Shown here: piece after piece, positions 47,064 to 58,521 of the stretch
How positions within the stretch are numbered: position 1 is the first letter of the stretch
Layout of the letters: each line of letters begins with the position of its first letter
Source: Candidatus Latescibacterota bacterium
GTDB taxonomy: Bacteria; Latescibacterota; UBA2968; GCA-2709665
DNA length: 64,000 nucleotides
NCBI GenBank assembly: GCA_965219995.1
Contig: CBDCOX010000002.1
Coordinates: 384,001 to 448,000 of the forward strand
Reading direction: 5' to 3'
Position numbers and translations under genes: made by a program
The notes under the pieces: model-generated
Databases searched by the model: none
What the model saw: the letters and a program-made list of their open reading frames with translations, nothing else
Told to the model about the DNA's origin: nothing

Positions 47064-47393
47064 TTATAATACGGCCTCGAGTTTTTCGACCAGTTGTTTC
47101 TTGGGTACCGCGCCAACGATCTGGTCGGCCAGTTCGCCGTCTTTGAATATGAGCAGCGTAGGGATGCTGCGGATCCCGTAGTCGGCGGCGATTTTCTGTT
47201 CGGAGTCGACGTCGACTTTGCCGACCTTGACCCTGCCCTCGTACTCGACGGCCAGTTCGTCCACGATGGGCGCGACCATGCGGCAGGGACCGCACCAGAC
47301 GGCCCAGAAATCCACCAGTACCGGAATGGAGGACTGTACTACTTCAGACTGAAAGCTGTCGTCGGTTATGGTTATTGCGTTTGCCAACGCCAC
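47064..47393 (-). CDS. trxA: Thioredoxin
   Basis: VDFWAVWCGPC and SIPTL motifs. Confidence 0.96.
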   Translation of the reverse strand: MALANAITITDDSFQSEVVQSSIPVLVDFWAVWCGPCRMVAPIVDELAVEYEGRVKVGKVDVDSEQKIAADYGIRSIPTLLIFKDGELADQIVGAVPKKQLVEKLEAVL

Positions 47394-47511
47394 ACCGCCT
47401 TTCGTTAACAGGTTCGAGTAACATGGGAGCGTTCACCGTGAGACCGTCAGGCTCCGTGCCAGTGGCCGGTCGATTCGAACCGTCGACTTTCGGGGTCGTC
47501 ACGGACCGACA

Positions 47512-47540
47512 AATCTACCATGTTTTCAAGGGCGTGTCAA
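47512..47540 (-). promoter_or_regulatory. Sigma70 promoter of trxA
   Basis: TTGACA-N17-TAGATT on the minus strand. Confidence 0.7.
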
Positions 47541-47590
47541 GAATCAGGAAACCGACCCGTGACGCTGAGGACGCACGGGTTCGCTCCGCT

Positions 47591-48619
47591 TCAGCCGGCC
47601 GGCCCGGCACAGATGCGGCAGATGAGTTGAGTAAGCGTGGCGTGAGGCGCGCGAGACCGCAACTTCAGGCGGTTGTCCGCATAAAGGAGCGCCTGGTACG
47701 CGGACCACAGGGTCTGGTCGTCGAACTGCGCGGCCTGATCGAGATAACTGGAAACAAAGAACGGAGGAACCTTCAGCTTCCCCGCCAGTTCGGACCGAGG
47801 CAAACCCTGGTTCCGAAGCCACCGGGCCTTGCGGAGAATCCCGATGTGCCGGGCGAGCATTGCCACAATTGCCACCGGATTGTCTCCGCGTTCCACAAGG
47901 CGGTGCAGAACGGCCAGGGCATCGCCCGCATTGCGTTGCCCCACGGCATCGGTGAGTTCGAAAACCGTTGCACTTCGCGCGGCGCCGCCGACCTGGATCA
48001 CGTCGTCGCGCGTGATGATTTCTCGTCCTTGCGTATAGATGGCCAGCTTCTCGAGTTCGCTGACCAGTTCCCCCGGATTCGGCCCCACGCCCAGGTGAAG
48101 CATGTGCGCAGCGTCGGGATCGATGCGTTTTTTCAGGGCAGCCGCGCGATTGCGAATCCACCTCGGGAGTTCGCTCTCGTAGGGCGGTTTGAATTCCACC
48201 GATACGGCGTTCTTTCGCAATGCGGCGGAGATCTTCTTGCGTCCGTCCAGTTTGTCCGCGGTAAATACAAGGACAGTGGTCTCAACCGGGTTGTCGACAA
48301 GGGGCAGAAACGTTCGCAGGTCGGGATCCCGCAACCGTTCCAGGCGTTTGACTACGACAACCCGACGCGACGCCATCATGGGAAAGGCGGTCGCCCGGCT
48401 GACCGCGTCGGCCGCGTCCATCTCCTCCCCGCGGAAGATGTCCAGGTTGAACGCTTTCGACGCGGGTTCGACGGCGGCGTCGACAAGGGCCCTCAGGCTT
48501 TCTTCCTTGCTGACGTTTTCAGATCCATACAACAGATACAGCGGTGCGAATTCCCCCCGCTGTATCTGCGCGTTCAGCTTATCCTGAGAATTGCCGGCTC
48601 TGGTCTTTTTCTTGGCCAC
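47591..48619 (-). CDS. holA: DNA polymerase III delta subunit
   Basis: PLYLLYG.E, FPMMASRRVVVV, ELEKL and VFELTDAV motifs, with typical length. Confidence 0.92.
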   Translation of the reverse strand: MAKKKTRAGNSQDKLNAQIQRGEFAPLYLLYGSENVSKEESLRALVDAAVEPASKAFNLDIFRGEEMDAADAVSRATAFPMMASRRVVVVKRLERLRDPDLRTFLPLVDNPVETTVLVFTADKLDGRKKISAALRKNAVSVEFKPPYESELPRWIRNRAAALKKRIDPDAAHMLHLGVGPNPGELVSELEKLAIYTQGREIITRDDVIQVGGAARSATVFELTDAVGQRNAGDALAVLHRLVERGDNPVAIVAMLARHIGILRKARWLRNQGLPRSELAGKLKVPPFFVSSYLDQAAQFDDQTLWSAYQALLYADNRLKLRSRAPHATLTQLICRICAGPAG

Positions 48620-48742
48620 GGTCGTGTTGGACGGGAAAAAAGCGAAGAACCATCAGAAATGTGCCGCGCTGTTGCCCGGCGGTGTTACGCGGACAAAGAC
48701 CGGACACTAACCTCAATGTGAAAAAAGAACACCGAAAAATTG

Positions 48743-48769: not shown

Positions 48770-48967
48770 AGCATCCGTGCAAGGCGGCGCGTGTCATAAC
48801 GCGGTGACCCTGCTGTACTTTCTTTACCGGACCGAAATGGTCGACCGGAAGGACATTTTTTCAGTTCACGTCAAGTGACCTGAAGGATCATAGAAATCAG
48901 CAGTTAAATCGCCTTTATTCACGTGCACATATTCGAATTCACGTCCCCGAATAATGACGAATCAAGG

Positions 48968-49159
48968 CTAGCTGTCGAGGTCGCGGAATTCAGCATCCCG
49001 GATCCGTTTCTTGCCGTTGTTCCCGTATGGTTTCTTGCCCGCTGTACGGGCGTGGTCCTTTGTATTGACGCCCCATCGAAACGCGGATCGCAACACGTCC
49101 CGAAGCACACGGTAAACGAGACCCAGCAACAGGACGAAGAGGAAAATGCGCAGCATCAT
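48968..49159 (-). CDS. Small membrane protein
   Basis: N-terminal TM, C-terminal IRDAEFRDL and a GGAG RBS. Directly downstream of purM. Confidence 0.65.
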   Translation of the reverse strand: MMLRIFLFVLLLGLVYRVLRDVLRSAFRWGVNTKDHARTAGKKPYGNNGKKRIRDAEFRDLDS

Positions 49160-49171
49160 TGCGTACTCCAG

Positions 49172-50212
49172 CTACAGGATTTGAACACCGGATCCCGGAT
49201 CCTTCACAACTTCCCCGACGACGTAGCCTGTCTCTCCACTCTCCGTCAACGCTTCTATCGCTTTCTGAGCCTGGCCGGAAGGCACGACAAGCAGCATGCC
49301 CAGACCCATGTTGAATACCCGAAACATCTCGTCGGTGGCGATATCGTCGCCCACCCGCTCCAAAAGGCTGAAAACGGGAAGTTCGGGCCACGATCCCCTG
49401 TAAATGCGTGCGCCAAGCCCGTCCGGAAGGGTGCGCGGCAGGTTGTCGACGATCCCTCCGCCGGTGATGTGGGCCATTCCCCGTACGGACACGGTTTCCA
49501 TAAGACGGAAGGCCGTCGACACGTAATTCCGGTGAGGCGCAAGCAGGGTTTCGCCAATGGTCGCGCCGAGTTCGGAACGGTGGGTGTCCACGGACCATCC
49601 CGCGGTGTCCAAAAACAGCTTGCGCGCCAGGGAATACCCGTTGGTGTGAAGGCCGCACGACGGCAGACCGATGAGCTTGTCGCCTGCTTGAGCCCCGGAA
49701 CCGTCCAGGATGTCTTTCCTGCTGACGACGCCGACGATCGTCCCTGCCAGGTCGTATTCGCCCTCCCGGTAAAAATCCGGCATTTCCGCCATTTCGCCGC
49801 CCAGCAGCGCGCATCCGCAGGCCTTGCATCCGTTTGCGATTCCTTCGATGACGGCCTCGGCCACGGAGGAATCGTGTTTTCCCATGGCGAGGTAGTCCAT
49901 GAAGAAGAGCGGGCGCGCGCCCTGTACAAGAATATCGTTGGCGCAGTGCGCCACAAGGTCGGCGCCGACCGTATTGTGGACACCGGTCATGAAAGCGATT
50001 CTGAGCTTCGTGCCCACGCCGTCCGTTCCGGCAACCAGGACCGGGTCCCGGTACGCCTCCCAGTGCGGAGCGAAAAGGCCGCCGAATCCACCGATGTCGG
50101 TGAGAACTTCAGGACCGAATGTCGATCGTACCAGGCCGGCGATGCCCTCTTTCGTCTGACTGGCGCTCTCGATGTCCACGCCGGCGGCGGCGTATGCGCC
50201 CGGTTTCTCCAT
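49172..50212 (-). CDS. purM: Phosphoribosylformylglycinamidine cyclo-ligase
   Basis: YAAAGVDI, GGFGG, TDGVGTK, GLHTNGYS, HITGGG and FNMGLG motifs. Confidence 0.97.
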   Translation of the reverse strand: MEKPGAYAAAGVDIESASQTKEGIAGLVRSTFGPEVLTDIGGFGGLFAPHWEAYRDPVLVAGTDGVGTKLRIAFMTGVHNTVGADLVAHCANDILVQGARPLFFMDYLAMGKHDSSVAEAVIEGIANGCKACGCALLGGEMAEMPDFYREGEYDLAGTIVGVVSRKDILDGSGAQAGDKLIGLPSCGLHTNGYSLARKLFLDTAGWSVDTHRSELGATIGETLLAPHRNYVSTAFRLMETVSVRGMAHITGGGIVDNLPRTLPDGLGARIYRGSWPELPVFSLLERVGDDIATDEMFRVFNMGLGMLLVVPSGQAQKAIEALTESGETGYVVGEVVKDPGSGVQIL

Positions 50213-50296
50213 CGTCCGGTTACCGTCCGTCGTTTTCAGATTCTTCAGGGAAGTCTGACAGAATCGAATGCTGGATTTCGATTCGAGTTTGGGATG

Positions 50297-51271
50297 CTAT
50301 GTGGCCACGCGGGGTGTTTGCACTGCGTCGCATGGTTGCGGCGTTGAATGTCCGCGTGCCACCGGGACGACGGGATACCGGTCCGGCGTGCTGCTGTCTG
50401 CTCCGGAGGCCGCGACGATCTGTTCGGCGACCCGCACTGCGCGAACGGCCGCTCCGACGTCGTGCACGCGCAGAATGTGAGCCCCGGCCGCCACGGAAAA
50501 ACCCACCGCGGCCAGCGTGCCTTCCAGCCGTTCACCCGGTGGAAGATCGAGAGCGGCGCCGGTGAACTTCTTGCGTGACGGGCCCACCAACAGGGGACAG
50601 CCGAGACCGTGGAATTCGTCCAGGCGGGCGAGGATTTCAAAGTTATGGGAATTTCGTTTTCCAAATCCCAGACCCGGGTCGATCAGTATCCTGTCGGGAG
50701 CAATTCCCGCATCCAGGGCCGCGGACCGGCGAGCGTCAAGAAAATCGATTACTTCACGCAGCAGGTTGTCGTACATCGGCTTGATCTGCATGGTACGGGG
50801 CGTGCCCTTCATGTGCATAAGCACGACCGCCGCACCCGATCGTGCGACGGTTTCGGCCATCAGGGAGTCGAATCGCATCGCGCTTATGTCGTTGACGATG
50901 CGCGCGCCCAACGCTAACGCTTCGTGCGCGACTTCCGCTTTGGTGGTGTCTACGGAGATGATGAGATCGGTTCCGGACGCGATTGCTTCGATGACGGGCG
51001 CGGTACGCCGGATCTCCTCTTCCGTCGAAACGGGATGGGCTCCCGCGCCGTATGTGCCGGCGGGGCGGGTGGATTCGCCGCCTACGTCGATGATGTCCGC
51101 CCCTTCTTCCGCCATCCTGAGCGCGCGTTCAATGGCCGGTTGCGGCTCGAAATAACGTCCACCGTCGGCGAAAGAGTCGGGTGTGACGTTGAGAACCCCC
51201 ATGATCAGGGTTCGTGAACCCAGATGCGTGATTTTACCCCGGCAATCGAGCCGGTGAGAGGGGGATTTCAT
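50297..51271 (-). CDS. folP: Dihydropteroate synthase
   Basis: MGVLNVTPDSF.DGG, GGESTRP, DPGLGFGK, SRK and RVHDV motifs. Confidence 0.96.
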   Translation of the reverse strand: MKSPSHRLDCRGKITHLGSRTLIMGVLNVTPDSFADGGRYFEPQPAIERALRMAEEGADIIDVGGESTRPAGTYGAGAHPVSTEEEIRRTAPVIEAIASGTDLIISVDTTKAEVAHEALALGARIVNDISAMRFDSLMAETVARSGAAVVLMHMKGTPRTMQIKPMYDNLLREVIDFLDARRSAALDAGIAPDRILIDPGLGFGKRNSHNFEILARLDEFHGLGCPLLVGPSRKKFTGAALDLPPGERLEGTLAAVGFSVAAGAHILRVHDVGAAVRAVRVAEQIVAASGADSSTPDRYPVVPVARGHSTPQPCDAVQTPRVAT

Positions 51272-55205: not shown

Positions 55206-55241
55206 AAGAAAAGACACGCTGATTTCAGCGTGTCTTTTCTT
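55206..55241. terminator. Bidirectional intrinsic terminator closing the redox operon
   Basis: AAGAAAAGACACGCTGA-TT-TCAGCGTGTCTTTTCTT. Confidence 0.85.
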
Positions 55242-55260: not shown

Positions 55261-56241
55261 TCAGGGCACGCGTTTTCCGAAGTTCTTCGCGAATTCCAGA
55301 AAGTCCGGAAAGTCGACCAACCCGTTTCCGTTCAGGTCGAAGGTGGCGTTGTCGGTGCTGAAGGCCTGGGCGAATGCGACGAAGTCGCTGAACCCGATTT
55401 CTCCGTCATTGTCGAAGTCGGCCCGGGGATTGACGGGGACAACGATGGCCGTTCCTGAAAGAGCGACGGTGACGCTGCTGTTTTCAGGGTCGTCACTGGA
55501 AATGGTAATGGTGCCGGAGAATGGACCGCCCTCCGAGGGTGTAAAGGTGATGTCGACTGTAGCGCTGTCGCCAGGCGCGACCATGAGTTCCGTCAGGCTG
55601 AACATGACGCCCTCGAGGTCGGATACCATGTTCGAAATGCTGAGGTCGGTCCCGCCGGTATTCTGCACGACCAGCTTCAGGGTTCGCGACTCGCCCGCCG
55701 GAACGTCTTCACCAAAGTCGAGCGATGTATTGGCGAGGCTGATTGCGGGCGGCGTAACGGTCAGCAATTCCCGGATACTCGCCGCCGCGGCGCTGAGACC
55801 GGAAGCGCCGCGCCCAATGTGGCGGACGATTCCCTCACGGTCCGCGACCAGCAACGTGTGGGTCCCGTGCGATCCCCTGATACTGCCCGCCCTCAGCAGG
55901 AGGGGAAACGTGATCGAGGTCGTCGACTGAAAACCTTGAAGTTGGGACTGACTGCCATTGTAGATGTCGAGCCCCAGGACCGCAACGCCGTCATCCTGGA
56001 ACGCCTTCCAGATCTGCTGTTCAATGGACGGACCCGCCGCCCTGCACGTGGGTCAGTTGTGGCCCAGGTAATAGAGGACCAGGACACCGCCCTTGTAGGT
56101 CGCCGAGGCGTAGGTCTTCCCGTCCAGCCCCGTAAGCGAGAACGTCGGTACCGCGTCGCCGACACTCTGGGCTTCCGCGGGTTCCGGCGGGTTGAGTCCG
56201 AAGAACAGCAGAAACACAAGGCACGCCGCGATTCGACTCAT
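55261..56241 (-). CDS. Putative selenoprotein (326 aa): signal peptide + redoxin (UxxC) + Ig-like ASH/choice-of-anchor-D domain + dockerin-like double EF-hand
   Basis: ORFs 56053-56241 and 55261-55854 are in one frame, separated only by the TGA at 56053-56055. Readthrough gives VLVLYYLGHN-U-PTC at the thioredoxin-fold active site. Confidence 0.85.
56026..56052 (-). promoter_or_regulatory. Bacterial SECIS-like hairpin
   Basis: UGA-CCCACGUGCA-GGGCGG-[CGGGU]-CCGUCC. The G-rich apical loop begins 16 nt after the UGA. Confidence 0.6.
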
Positions 56242-56274
56242 CGAAGGCCTCCTTCAAGAAAGTGAAAGTTCGCG

Positions 56275-57858
56275 TCAGAAATGGGTTTTAAGTCGCATTT
56301 CCAGTCCACTGAACGGCAACACAAGATAGCATGTCCCCGATGTACACGCGGCGCCGCCTCTCCTGCGTCCGGCGAATACGAAGGCTTCGTATCTATCGAG
56401 GAAGGCGACGTTGAGACTGACCGCCAACCAGGTCCGCGATCCGGTTTCGATCCGGTCCGTCGTGACGTTATCGTCCACTTCGAACGGATCGTTGGTGCGA
56501 TCCAGAATGAGAGCGGCGCCCGCGCCCGAGGGATGCTGGAATGAAAACTGAGCATACACATCCCGGAACGTCTGCTCGTTTCGGGGAAGCCTGGCAGCGC
56601 GTCGGAACTGCAGATCGAAGCTCGTGACAGCCCCGCCGGGTGCGGTGGACTCGATCCCCGCGCCGGCGATCCTGTGCATTCGGATGCCCTTCAATTCGTC
56701 CTTGCCCCAATTCACGAACAGGCTGGTCGATATCGCGCGGCCGTGGTCTTCCCTGTGGTGGTCGATGTCCAGGCCGACGTACCGTTCATTGAAAGTCGTC
56801 GCGAATCCGGGCGCCAGTTCGTTCTTTCCCTTACTGATGTTTGCCGTCAGCGTCCCCATCCCGAAAATCGAATACGTGGCCTCCGCCTGGTAGCCCGTTT
56901 CCGTATCGGCAATCAGTGCATGGGTCGCCCGGTTGAGCAGGACGGCCGAGTGTTCGCGGACCAGGGAAGGGGGATCGTTGAAACTGAAGGCGAAATTCTC
57001 ATAGTCCTTGTATTCCAGGCTGAGACCCAGGTTGGAAATTCCGGCGTTGGCCGAAAGATACAGAGCGCTTCCGTCCACGTGGACGTCATTCAGCCCGGCG
57101 TATTCGGCGTAGACGGTCGCGTACAGATCAGAGAGTCCGGATGCCTCCAACGCCGGCGTGACGTCCAGTTCCAGGAAGCCCGACCAGGTTCGGGTCGAAT
57201 CGAGCCTGGAGGCGTGATGGCTGACCGCCGTAACGCCGGCCTCGATCTGGCTGGCAGGCCGTAGCGATACCTCGCCTCCGACAAGCCAGCTATCGCGCCG
57301 CGGCAGGTCCCGGAGCGGGTTACCCACTCGTACCGCGGGCGGAATATCACTTAATACGGGTCGCCCGATCAGGGCTTTGGCCCCGGCCCGCGGCCCGGTC
57401 CAGGTGGCCATGCTGCCCTCGAGGTCTCGCGAGGGCGAATAGCGTCGCCGGTATTGCCCGCTCTCCAGAATAACGCCCGGCAGATCGAATGCCCTGAGCG
57501 TAATACCCCGCCCCAGGATCGCATAATAGTTGCCCGCAACCAGCTCCACGGGTCCCTGCGTCCAGCGAAGGTGTTTCTGTGAAACATGCACGACCTGGTA
57601 TTCGACCTGCGATAGCGGCGTGCCGGGAGCGGGGTTGCGCCACGCATTGAAGATCTCCGCCCGAAGTCCGGCCTGCATGCCGTGCCGCGTGTAGTCGACG
57701 TCGAACTGCTCATAAAGCGACGAAGCCGCCAGTGAGTCCGAGCCCGGTACGCGTCCCCGCTGGATTTCGGTCAGGCTGGATGCCGTCACCTGAGCACCGC
57801 CCGGTTTCGACGTCACCAGCAGAAGGAGCATTGTCAGGCTATTTGCCAGTGCTCGCAT
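56275..57858 (-). CDS. Outer-membrane beta-barrel protein, DUF6029-like
   Basis: Signal peptide, GNYYAILGRGITLRAF, alternating beta strands, C-terminal GGAACTSGTC..PFSG and a terminal Phe. Confidence 0.75.
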   Translation of the reverse strand: MRALANSLTMLLLLVTSKPGGAQVTASSLTEIQRGRVPGSDSLAASSLYEQFDVDYTRHGMQAGLRAEIFNAWRNPAPGTPLSQVEYQVVHVSQKHLRWTQGPVELVAGNYYAILGRGITLRAFDLPGVILESGQYRRRYSPSRDLEGSMATWTGPRAGAKALIGRPVLSDIPPAVRVGNPLRDLPRRDSWLVGGEVSLRPASQIEAGVTAVSHHASRLDSTRTWSGFLELDVTPALEASGLSDLYATVYAEYAGLNDVHVDGSALYLSANAGISNLGLSLEYKDYENFAFSFNDPPSLVREHSAVLLNRATHALIADTETGYQAEATYSIFGMGTLTANISKGKNELAPGFATTFNERYVGLDIDHHREDHGRAISTSLFVNWGKDELKGIRMHRIAGAGIESTAPGGAVTSFDLQFRRAARLPRNEQTFRDVYAQFSFQHPSGAGAALILDRTNDPFEVDDNVTTDRIETGSRTWLAVSLNVAFLDRYEAFVFAGRRRGGAACTSGTCYLVLPFSGLEMRLKTHF

Positions 57859-58378
57859 CGGCGTTTGCCTCATCGTCGCCGCCGGCATCCGGAAAAAGCG
57901 CCGCAACCGCAGCCAGTAACGCCTCGGCGTTTTTCGAGTTATACCCGACCTGCCGTAGCGCAATCTCCCCGTCGGGTGTGATCAGAAGCGTCGTCGGCAG
58001 GACGTTCACCTGCATTCGCCGCATCACCGCGCTGTCAGAGTCGAGGGCGATGGGGAAGTTAACCCTTCGCGCCCTGAGAAAGGGTTTCACCCGGTTCTGT
58101 CCGCGCGGACCGTCCACGTTGACGCCAAGAACCGTGAGCCCGGATTTTCCGTATTTCTCGTGGATCTTCTGTAGCTTGGGCATTGCCTTGATGCAAGGCT
58201 TGCAGTAGGTCGCCCAGAAATCCAGAAGCACGGGTCCCTTTGCCAGCAGGGTCTTGAGGTTGACCCGTTCGCCCTGCAGATTCCGGAGGTTGAAGTCGGG
58301 GGCCGAGGCGGCGTTCGCGGACGCCGCAGACAGTGTGATCGAGGCGGCAAGAGCCAGCGATTGAAGGGTCGATTTCAT
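57839..58378 (-). CDS. TlpA-family exported disulfide reductase
   Basis: Signal peptide, APDFNL, LLDFWATYCKPC and VLPTT motifs. Confidence 0.92.
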   Translation of the reverse strand: MKSTLQSLALAASITLSAASANAASAPDFNLRNLQGERVNLKTLLAKGPVLLDFWATYCKPCIKAMPKLQKIHEKYGKSGLTVLGVNVDGPRGQNRVKPFLRARRVNFPIALDSDSAVMRRMQVNVLPTTLLITPDGEIALRQVGYNSKNAEALLAAVAALFPDAGGDDEANADASTGK

Positions 58379-58521
58379 CAGTCGAGTCTCTCCCTGATGT
58401 TTCAGCGGCGTTACGAGGAAGTTGCCGTTACACTGAAAAACGCCCGAAGCATCTGACCGGTTCCGGAACCCACGCTGACGCGCGCAATACACGGTGCGCC
58501 GGATTGACGTCGAATTGATTA

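Follow-up and report, generated by a model that had tools for sequence, protein, structure and literature searches.

Selenoproteins of the thioredoxin fold in which selenocysteine (Sec, U) opens a UxxC motif have been catalogued since 2004–2005, in the families of Kryukov, Zhang and Gladyshev. Table 1 of a 2026 review lists Prx-like and TlpA-like selenoproteins as PF00578 and cd02966 families (PMC13188914), and Prx-like thiol:disulfide oxidoreductase and thiol-disulfide isomerase-like selenoproteins are described as predicted families (PMC13188914, PMC1088965). Here, we analysed a minus-strand gene in a 64,000-nt stretch of a Candidatus Latescibacterota genome (contig CBDCOX010000002.1, positions 384,001 to 448,000; the whole stretch is hereafter called the window). 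Its product shares with these families the PF00578 thioredoxin fold, Sec in place of the attacking Cys and an abundance of Cys homologues; judged by the published descriptions of those families rather than by their reference accessions, it differs in adding one or more immunoglobulin (Ig)-like spacers, a dockerin-like module and a signal peptide, and in being without the cis-Pro of the fold. On the sequence evidence, positions 56241..55261 very probably form one gene for a 326-residue exported Sec-redoxin mounted on an Ig spacer and a dockerin-like module. We take it for a genuine selenoprotein gene that has been mis-annotated, and its product is most likely an exported Sec-dependent thiol-disulfide oxidoreductase tethered via the dockerin-like module. 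A preliminary description of the window had inferred an exported, surface-tethered selenoenzyme of unusual architecture; the UxxC thioredoxin-fold kind itself is already known. New are the Ig-dockerin architecture, the loss of cis-Pro, the kinship with cargo of type IX secretion, and the scale of the family together with its mis-annotation across the phylum.

The frame comprises 326 sense codons with a single interruption, a TGA at 56055..56053. The open reading frame (ORF) caller had closed a 62-aa ORF (56241..56053) at this codon, exactly where the first Cys of a CxxC motif belongs (L-G-H-N-U-P-T-C), and reading through recovered the 263 stop-free sense codons that the preliminary description had counted between it and the terminal TGA (55263..55261). 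With a genome GC content of 60.6%, the probability of 263 codons without a stop is arithmetically about 2e-4. The read-through product (MSRIAAC...LGHN-U-PTC...FGKRVP) begins with a signal-peptide-like N-terminus, MSRIAACLVFLLFFGLNPPEPAEA|QSVG..., whose AxA-Q site is kept among the orthologues at the aligned loci; together with the secretion-sorting domains of more distant relatives (see below), this supports the export proposed earlier. A lipobox-like I-A-A-C at residues 4–7 was rejected, being too near the N-terminus and not conserved in the orthologue alignment. The terminal TGA is kept as terminator in 15 of the 20 aligned loci, which are all 15 loci of the same genus, and a TGA one codon later in L043 and L044 brings the loci closed by TGA to 17 of 20.

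The genome (5.44 Mb in 2 contigs) encodes the complete Sec machinery, all four genes matching over their curated cut-offs: selA (558.9 bits), selB (366.8 bits), tRNA-Sec (selC, 73.4) and selD (359.9 bits), the last with an in-frame TGA of its own. This selD product is itself a selenoprotein (T-C-G-U-A-A-K). TGA closes 2710 of the 4690 stop-to-stop frames of at least 300 codons; because it is the commonest stop in the genome and terminates the selenoprotein gene itself, TGA is not reassigned here.

Homologues were searched for in 40 relatives and in the genome itself with stops read through. A full-length orthologue with exactly one TGA (75–87% identity) was present in 14 of 14 same-genus genomes, and more distant copies (35–45% identity), nearly all with one TGA, occurred in two families of the order. 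Twenty loci were translated and aligned, and 36 more places were fetched afterwards, yielding 61 distinct copies from 41 genomes. The TGA occupied one aligned column in 19 of the 20 loci, the remaining one (L041) having TGT in G-Y-N-C-P-V-C. Across the 61 distinct copies, the codon was TGA in 59 and TGT in 2, and across 18 class-level and other copies it was TGA in 14 and a Cys codon in 4, one of which (L192) is an ordinary TlpA with W-C-P-Y-C and cis-Pro. Trp was never found at the Sec site among the aligned homologues, Cys being the sole alternative, and the TGA was conserved in one codon in copies down to ~30% identity. At the scale of the phylum, the redoxin domain was matched at E ≤ 1e-10 in 110 of 168 genomes; among the matches listed, all but 8 had exactly one TGA and no other stop, and the 8 exceptions comprised 6 without TGA, 1 with TAA and 1 with TGA plus TAG.

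The ratio of nonsynonymous to synonymous substitution (dN/dS) in six orthologue pairs was 0.08–0.19 for codons 25–62, 0.12–0.20 for codons 64–160 and 0.12–0.22 for the remainder, and such purifying selection on either side of the TGA indicates that both sides are translated in the same frame. A contig from an independent DNA run (X5 record 15, 55934–56195) was identical across the TGA, with 0 differences, and a second DNA run contig (X6 record 22) likewise spans it. Because of the TGA conservation, the purifying selection and the independent contig, a sequencing error, a pseudogene and two separate genes are excluded for practical purposes. The preliminary description had named missing Sec machinery, Trp or another residue in homologues, and a sequencing error as grounds for abandoning the Sec reading, and each of these came out in favour of selenocysteine. 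What weighs on the other side is that the evidence for Sec is at the level of sequence.

A quick tree of 121 head domains, rooted at its midpoint, joined 53 Sec and 7 Cys sequences from the order in one group (SH-aLRT 98), neighboured by an all-Cys group of 37, and well-supported branches forced at least 4 Sec/Cys changes; since this tree is quick and has no real root, no direction of change is claimed. A second Sec paralogue (61–68% identical, U-[ND]-L-C) lies directly downstream of the orthologue in four same-genus genomes (L028, L029, L030 and L031, in G004, G011, G009 and G002, respectively).

The related records are metagenome-assembled genomes of Candidatus Latescibacterota, a few of them labelled Gemmatimonadota by their submitters, and the runs that share at least half of the stretch's words, besides the probable source, are labelled sponge metagenome. 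In a collection of 5.8 billion proteins, the close relatives are C-terminal fragments of 197–241 residues (60–74% of the query), named, where a name is given, 'choice-of-anchor D domain-containing protein' or 'DUF1573 domain-containing protein'; only Cys forms are full length, such as a 437-aa 'peroxiredoxin'. The gene is hidden, as had been proposed: a selenoprotein family of 110 of 168 genomes of the phylum is invisible in protein databases because the records split its genes and name only the C-terminal fragment.

In the fdhF-type selenocysteine insertion sequence (SECIS) of E. coli, a hairpin lies ~11 nt past the UGA and exposes G and U in a GGUC-type loop near +23/+24. A hairpin of the same kind stands behind the selD UGA of this genome (CAGUCC-GGUC-GGACUG, with its GGUC loop at +21..+24) and appears to provide an internal reference, which the GGUC at +22..+25 of the window gene resembles in sequence. 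The window gene differs from the fdhF type in that its GGUC register has only a 4-bp stem, and a shifted register with six pairs and a CGGGU loop is more stable. The latter stem, GGGCGG/CCGUCC (56042..56026), begins 10 nt past the UGA and has C-G and A-U pairs beneath it; over nt +10..+39, it is the fold of lowest energy both here and in most members of the genus.

Comparison across the family was more informative than the single sequence. A hairpin was centred on the same spot in 55 of 55 distinct Sec copies, with a mean energy of −9.5 vs −6.1 kcal/mol for synonymous recodings; 23 of the 55 copies stood out from their recodings at ≤ 0.05 and 36 at ≤ 0.2, these per-copy tests not being independent because the copies are related. 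Offsets +20..+25 from the U of the UGA read G-G-G-U-C-C in 47–54 of 54 sequences, which includes the third codon positions +20 and +23, while the third positions +5, +8 and from +32 onward vary freely, and a GGGU/GGUC apex lies ~22–25 nt past the UGA in every Sec copy. The pairing register differs by clade: in the window's genus, six pairs close a CGGGU loop; the paralogues and the other genera of the family have a GGUC tetraloop on five pairs, with a lower helix; and a large sister-family clade has a GUC or GGUCC loop on 7–9 pairs. Under the GGGCGG/CCGUCC register, 65.5% of cells were paired (60.1 ± 1.6 in shuffles and 33–61% in slid controls), and under the GGUC register 67.5% (62.4 ± 0.8 in shuffles and 38–45% in slid controls). 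Class-level copies have a hairpin at the same place with unrelated stems (e.g., CGCGG-AGG-CCGCG and CUCUCG-CGUGC-CGAGAG), and changed stems at a fixed place are the behaviour expected of a structural signal.

Several results weigh against such a signal. The window hairpin alone is not significant: for its 71-nt fold z was −0.04, equal or better stability was reached by 85 of 200 shuffles, and its energy of −9.3 compares with −7.1 ± 2.2 for synonymous recodings, 20% of which fold as well. The GGGUCC conservation is partly at the protein level, because GGGUCC encodes a conserved Gly-Pro. No Rfam family matched positions 55900–56150 at E ≤ 10. No single register suits all 55 sequences, and their RNAalifold consensus is weak (−3.69 kcal/mol) and falls on another helix, for which reason one SECIS register conserved family-wide was dropped as a candidate. 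Taken together, we conclude from these patterns that the gene has a SECIS whose apex is better defined than its stem. Of the hairpin put forward in the preliminary description, the presence and, for the window's genus, the register stood; taken alone it is no better than chance, and the other clades use shifted registers around the same GGGU/GGUC apex. A Cys paralogue (L045; G020, strand −, nt 902; F-R-C-P-V-C) carries a GGAACG-GGCC-CGUUC hairpin at the SECIS place, a hint of a recent Sec-to-Cys change and a possible fossil SECIS.

Table 1. Features of the selenoprotein gene, its cluster and related loci of the same genome. Positions without prefix are those of the window; C2 and G000:C2 positions are those of the genome.
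Feature	Position	Strand	Basis or remark
Intrinsic-terminator-like hairpin, 16 pairs, then T-rich tail	55206..55241	-	Folding
True stop codon TGA	55261..55263	-	Frame
Dockerin-like module, two putative Ca-binding F-hand repeats, residues 270–326	55264..55434	-	EF-hand_1 over cut-off, Dockerin_1 below; family profile matches dockerin 2y3n_B
Choice-of-anchor-D / ASH-type Ig-like domain, residues 163–265	55447..55755	-	Pfam and NCBIfam matches
TlpA/ResA-like thioredoxin-fold (redoxin) domain, residues 25–160	55762..56169	-	Pfam AhpC-TSA and Redoxin over cut-off; solved relatives 2ls5, 3kcm, ResA
His128 where the thioredoxin-fold cis-Pro sits	55858..55860	-	Alignment to 3kcm
SECIS-like hairpin	56022..56044	-	Folding, family comparison, selD hairpin comparison
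Resolving Cys66 (TGC)	56044..56046	-	Invariant in 60/60 distinct copies
UGA, predicted selenocysteine 63, opening residue of U-P-T-C	56053..56055	-	Frame and homologue alignments
Start codon and signal peptide, residues 1–24 (MSR, hydrophobic core, PAEA|Q)	56170..56241	-	Sequence
Shine-Dalgarno-like GGAGG, 6 nt 5' of ATG	56248..56252	-	Read from sequence
DUF6029 protein, upstream gene, sole genome copy, ends ...KTHF	56275..57963	-	Family match
Canonical exported TlpA/ResA-like redoxin, first cluster gene	57839..58540	-	W-A-T-Y-C-K-P-C, cis-Pro in V-L-P-T-T
selA, selB and tRNA-Sec, adjacent	C2:1802582-1806100
selD	C2:2652925		Listed as G000:C2:2652952, locus L001, outside window
314-aa cohesin ORF	G000:C2:2367012-2367953		Locus L093/L094 pair
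1711-aa cohesin ORF	G000:C2:3130271-3135403		Locus L093/L094 pair

The redoxin head matched Pfam AhpC-TSA (PF00578; residues 27–116, 49.2 bits, cut-off 26) and Redoxin (PF08534; residues 27–147, 38.5 bits, cut-off 26.6). It resembles TlpA, ResA and CcmG in that its closest solved structures by sequence are 2ls5, 3kcm, 4nmu, 3hdc and ResA entries including 1st9, in being exported, and in the place of its U63-P-T-C66 at the start of helix 1. Those proteins, like the TlpA-like product of the same gene cluster (WATYCKPC, LPTT), differ in using Cys together with a cis-Pro at the start of strand 3, and the head scored 39.7 vs a cut-off of 170 on the NCBIfam ResA model; the NCBIfam model of ResA-like WAxxUGC selenoproteins (NF041054) gave no match at E ≤ 0.1, the window motif being LGHNUPTC. 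When G-V-P-E-T-F-V-I-D of 3kcm was aligned to G-T-H-T-L-L-V-A-D of the window, the Pro fell on His128, which agrees with the replaced cis-Pro loop noticed in the preliminary description and would place His128 beside U63. Among 60 distinct Latescibacterota copies, this position holds Glu in 30, His in 14, Asp in 13, a gap in 3 and Pro in none, and the class-level copies additionally have Asn, Gln and Thr. As the cis-Pro is stated to be more conserved in the thioredoxin fold than the CxxC itself (PMC2757866), its absence makes the family a natural experiment on the role of this residue.

When the mature head was run with HMMER against 1.84 billion representative proteins, it gave 4567 matches at E ≤ 1e-3, 260 at ≤ 1e-10 and 6 at ≤ 1e-30, and the best 149 relatives were examined. 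The Sec position is Cys in 144 of these, the cis-Pro position is Asp in 97 (68 as T-D-R) and Pro in 7, and most share the motif G-L-D-x-W-N-G. A Pfam scan of the same 149 found Por_Secre_tail in 79, CHU_C (type B signal) in 7 and FlgD_ig in 15. The few that are named include 'redoxin domain-containing protein [Bacteroidales bacterium]' and 'TlpA family protein disulfide reductase [Labilibacter marinus]'. Because the nearest Cys relatives mostly bear type IX sorting tails, the lineage looks like one of surface-displayed redoxins, and by sequence the head is part of a broader and apparently unstudied lineage, in which redoxins lacking cis-Pro are habitually joined to modules for surface sorting. 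Among the Latescibacterota members, the dockerin-like module appears to serve as anchor and the nucleophile is mostly Sec. Multi-redoxin chains were seen among the Cys relatives, with 3–5 redoxin domains and up to 1280 residues (P0079, P0086, P0103, P0108 and P0135), and in P0080 two heads are joined to SprB and PKD repeats as well as a type IX tail.

The closest Cys relatives, Bacteroidota proteins that combine a redoxin with a type IX C-terminal domain, share the G-L-D-x-W-N-G motif, are likewise without cis-Pro, which in them is replaced by Asp, and carry a C-terminal surface-sorting module. They differ in that Cys takes the place of Sec, and a type IX tail that of the Ig and dockerin parts. 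We know of no functional study of this Bacteroidota family. HBP35 of Porphyromonas gingivalis, a characterised surface protein reported to have thioredoxin activity, likewise combines a thioredoxin-like motif with a C-terminal domain of the type IX kind (PMC2907840); the likeness is one of published description, and HBP35 has neither Sec nor a dockerin. Judged by titles and term counts, the literature yielded no relevant work that links selenocysteine or selenoproteins to Latescibacteria/-ota, to dockerins or to type IX secretion, and supplementary tables may list such sequences.

Behind the head, Pfam HYDIN/VesB Ig (residues 165–263), ASH (residues 172–255) and DUF1573 all matched over cut-off, as did NCBIfam choice-of-anchor D (NF012200; residues 163–253, 51.7 bits, cut-off 45). 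The C-terminal tail contains two D-x-[DN]-x-[DN]-G...D-F repeats and an EF-hand_1 match (28.6 bits, cut-off 25.4), and the family profile matched solved dockerins (2y3n_B, E = 1.3e-8; 4wi0_B, 3.1e-5; 4u3s_B, weaker). The succession of redoxin, ASH-type Ig domain and paired EF-hand/dockerin-like tail given in the preliminary description was recovered. Across the phylum, 1–5 Ig repeats separate the head from the dockerin module, and the genes often stand in tandem arrays; two same-genus genomes have two Ig domains. A stalk of variable length between catalytic head and C-terminal anchor fits a tethered enzyme. A weak NCBIfam match to the OS_HP2 (seleno)protein family (25.5 vs 100) lay on the Ig domain and was rejected as a lead. 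Arrays of up to five Ig repeats behind the head occur at L098, and frames of the sister family opened by a Sec-redoxin head reach 1182–1695 codons (G088:C14:82312.., G090:C1:861958.. and 4826876..).

A hidden Markov model of the dockerin-like module found it in 86 ORFs of the genome, and its position is bimodal, within 10 residues of the stop in 50 ORFs and at least 250 residues before it in 33. Cohesin was matched over cut-off in 2 ORFs of the genome (1711 and 314 aa), both ending in a type IX tail-like segment (25.4 bits, 27.4 with its neighbours, in the larger). From sequence, these data suggest a type-IX-anchored cohesin-dockerin system in this Latescibacterota genome, with dockerin proteins held on type-IX-sorted cohesin scaffolds. 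An ORF of 1711 aa, the length of the larger cohesin ORF, is among the dockerin-module matches. Speaking against this picture, scores stayed below cut-off for Pfam Dockerin_1 (14.5 bits, cut-off 22.9), for NCBIfam dockerin_GC (25.7, cut-off 29) and for the type IX tail in the smaller, 314-aa cohesin ORF (22.3 bits, cut-off 27), and the dockerin protein would still need a route across the outer membrane.

In the scheme that we consider most likely, UGA codon 63 would be decoded as selenocysteine by SelA, SelB, tRNA-Sec and SelD, guided by a hairpin that starts ~10 nt past the UGA and presents a GGGU/GGUC apex at ~+22..+25. The product would be exported via the Sec translocon with cleavage of its signal peptide, leaving a mature protein that would consist of a TlpA/ResA-like head with U63-P-T-C66, one choice-of-anchor-D Ig spacer and a C-terminal dockerin-like Ca-binding module. 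The selenolate may attack a substrate disulfide or another oxidised sulfur species, Cys66 would resolve the intermediate into an intramolecular selenenylsulfide, and a partner would re-reduce it; a candidate for this partner is the canonical TlpA-like redoxin of the cluster, possibly fed by the single DsbD/CcdA-type membrane protein. The dockerin may bind a cohesin-bearing envelope or surface protein, with the Ig domain or domains as a stalk. Of this scheme, the data show the reading frame, the pairing of Sec with Cys among homologues, the presence of the Sec machinery, the domain make-up and a conserved neighbourhood; the chemistry and the surface tethering of the selenoprotein are what we infer.

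To our knowledge, almost all known bacterial selenoproteins are cytoplasmic enzymes or respiratory enzymes exported by twin-arginine translocation (Tat). A Sec redoxin that is exported by the Sec translocon and bears an anchor would, if real, extend selenium biochemistry to the cell surface. Tentatively, the protein may be an extracellular selenoenzyme, with a Sec-redoxin head and a variable Ig stalk docked by cohesin-dockerin pairing onto type-IX-sorted scaffolds. It would then be the first selenoprotein to form part of a cellulosome-like surface assembly; Sec would have been fixed since an oxidising exterior poor in reductants would over-oxidise a thiol but lets a selenol persist and recycle; and the cis-Pro-less head, common to the type-IX-secreted Bacteroidota Cys relatives, would represent an unstudied extracellular redox class for host or matrix disulfides. 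Extracellular docking or an unusual cis-Pro-less chemistry, if shown, would raise the significance of the family.

There is also some chance that the protein stays in the periplasm, its dockerin-like tail serving as a Ca-binding or interaction module, and works with the neighbouring TlpA-like redoxin in the maturation of envelope proteins. The signal peptide is of the Sec type only, a canonical exported TlpA-like redoxin is encoded in the same cluster, a DsbD_TM protein is present in the genome, and no export route through the outer membrane has been identified. Type IX cargo predominates among the Cys relatives, however, with a type A or B sorting tail in 86 of the best 149, the number of Ig spacers varies from 1 to 5, and cohesin ORFs with type-IX-like tails exist, all of which favour surface display over a periplasmic role.

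The chemistry of the head can be questioned separately from its location. A selenium-dependent peroxidase of the Prx/GPx kind, clearing peroxides at the cell surface instead of reducing or isomerising disulfides, is rather unlikely in our judgement. AhpC/TSA is the best Pfam match, Cys relatives are named 'peroxiredoxin' by their sources, GSHPx was cross-matched by 13 of the best 149 relatives, few thiol reductants are expected outside the cell, and peroxiredoxins are likewise described as being without cis-Pro (PMC2757866). The latter, according to the same source, have Arg in its place, whereas the family has Glu, His or Asp, or in class-level copies Asn, Gln or Thr; the motif N-U-P-T-C is of the UxxC type and not the TxxU or PxxxTxxC given for Sec and Cys peroxiredoxins (Table 1 of PMC13188914; PMC1088965); and the best solved relatives are of the TlpA/ResA type. 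Since cis-Pro is replaced by residues other than Arg, the head is neither a canonical TlpA nor a peroxiredoxin, and because cis-Pro, a hallmark of TlpA- and Trx-type oxidoreductases, is absent, its chemistry may also differ from that of TlpA, which counts against a plain disulfide oxidoreductase.

That the loss of cis-Pro opens the U/C pair to a metal or metalloid (e.g., Cu, Hg or Se), making the head a binding or carrier protein and not an oxidoreductase, seems improbable. Cis-Pro has been proposed to keep metal off the dithiol (Su et al. 2007 as cited in PMC2757866), the residues that replace it are mostly His, Asp or Glu, and SCO1/SenC was cross-matched by 19 of the best 149 relatives; against this, Glu, His, Asp, Asn, Gln and Thr all occur at the position, this lack of a fixed identity argues against a fixed metal ligand, and no metal-related genes were seen beside the selenoprotein gene. 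A fixed Sec/Cys/His metal site was marked down for the same variability. Finally, that translation truly ends at the TGA, that the codon reflects a defect (pseudogene, sequencing error or two genes) or that anything other than tRNA-Sec reads it, as the C-terminal fragments annotated by standard callers and the unremarkable window hairpin might suggest, is extremely improbable and already contradicted by the one-codon conservation of TGA with Cys as sole alternative, the purifying selection on either side, the independent contig, the complete Sec machinery and the use of TGA as commonest stop.

The selenoprotein gene is the last of three minus-strand genes, after those for the TlpA-like redoxin and the DUF6029 protein, and is followed downstream by tilS and ftsH. 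The DUF6029 protein is possibly an outer-membrane barrel; its true start is probably near 57860–57890, and the probable start of the TlpA-like gene is the Met at 58378. DUF6029 lies directly upstream of the selenoprotein gene in 18 of the 20 loci, and another genus has TlpA and DUF6029 followed by three tandem genes with the head, then tilS and ftsH; the flanks retrieved for the sister family contained no DUF6029. The single DsbD_TM protein is encoded elsewhere in the genome. Metatranscriptome contigs (X16 and X18, 95–99% alike) cover 56119–58347, which takes in the two upstream genes and 40 codons from the start of the selenoprotein gene, and one of them bridges the junction between DUF6029 and the latter, DNA carry-over being possible; since the contigs stop short of the TGA and carry-over is possible, they show neither read-through nor its absence. 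Three long ORFs of the window were without a Pfam match at E ≤ 0.001, namely 47375–48721 (+), 48923–50347 (+) and 60234–61751 (−), of 448, 474 and 505 aa, respectively. Also nearby are genes for a GFO/IDH/MocA oxidoreductase (58850–59902) and an FGE-sulfatase-domain protein (62808–63587).

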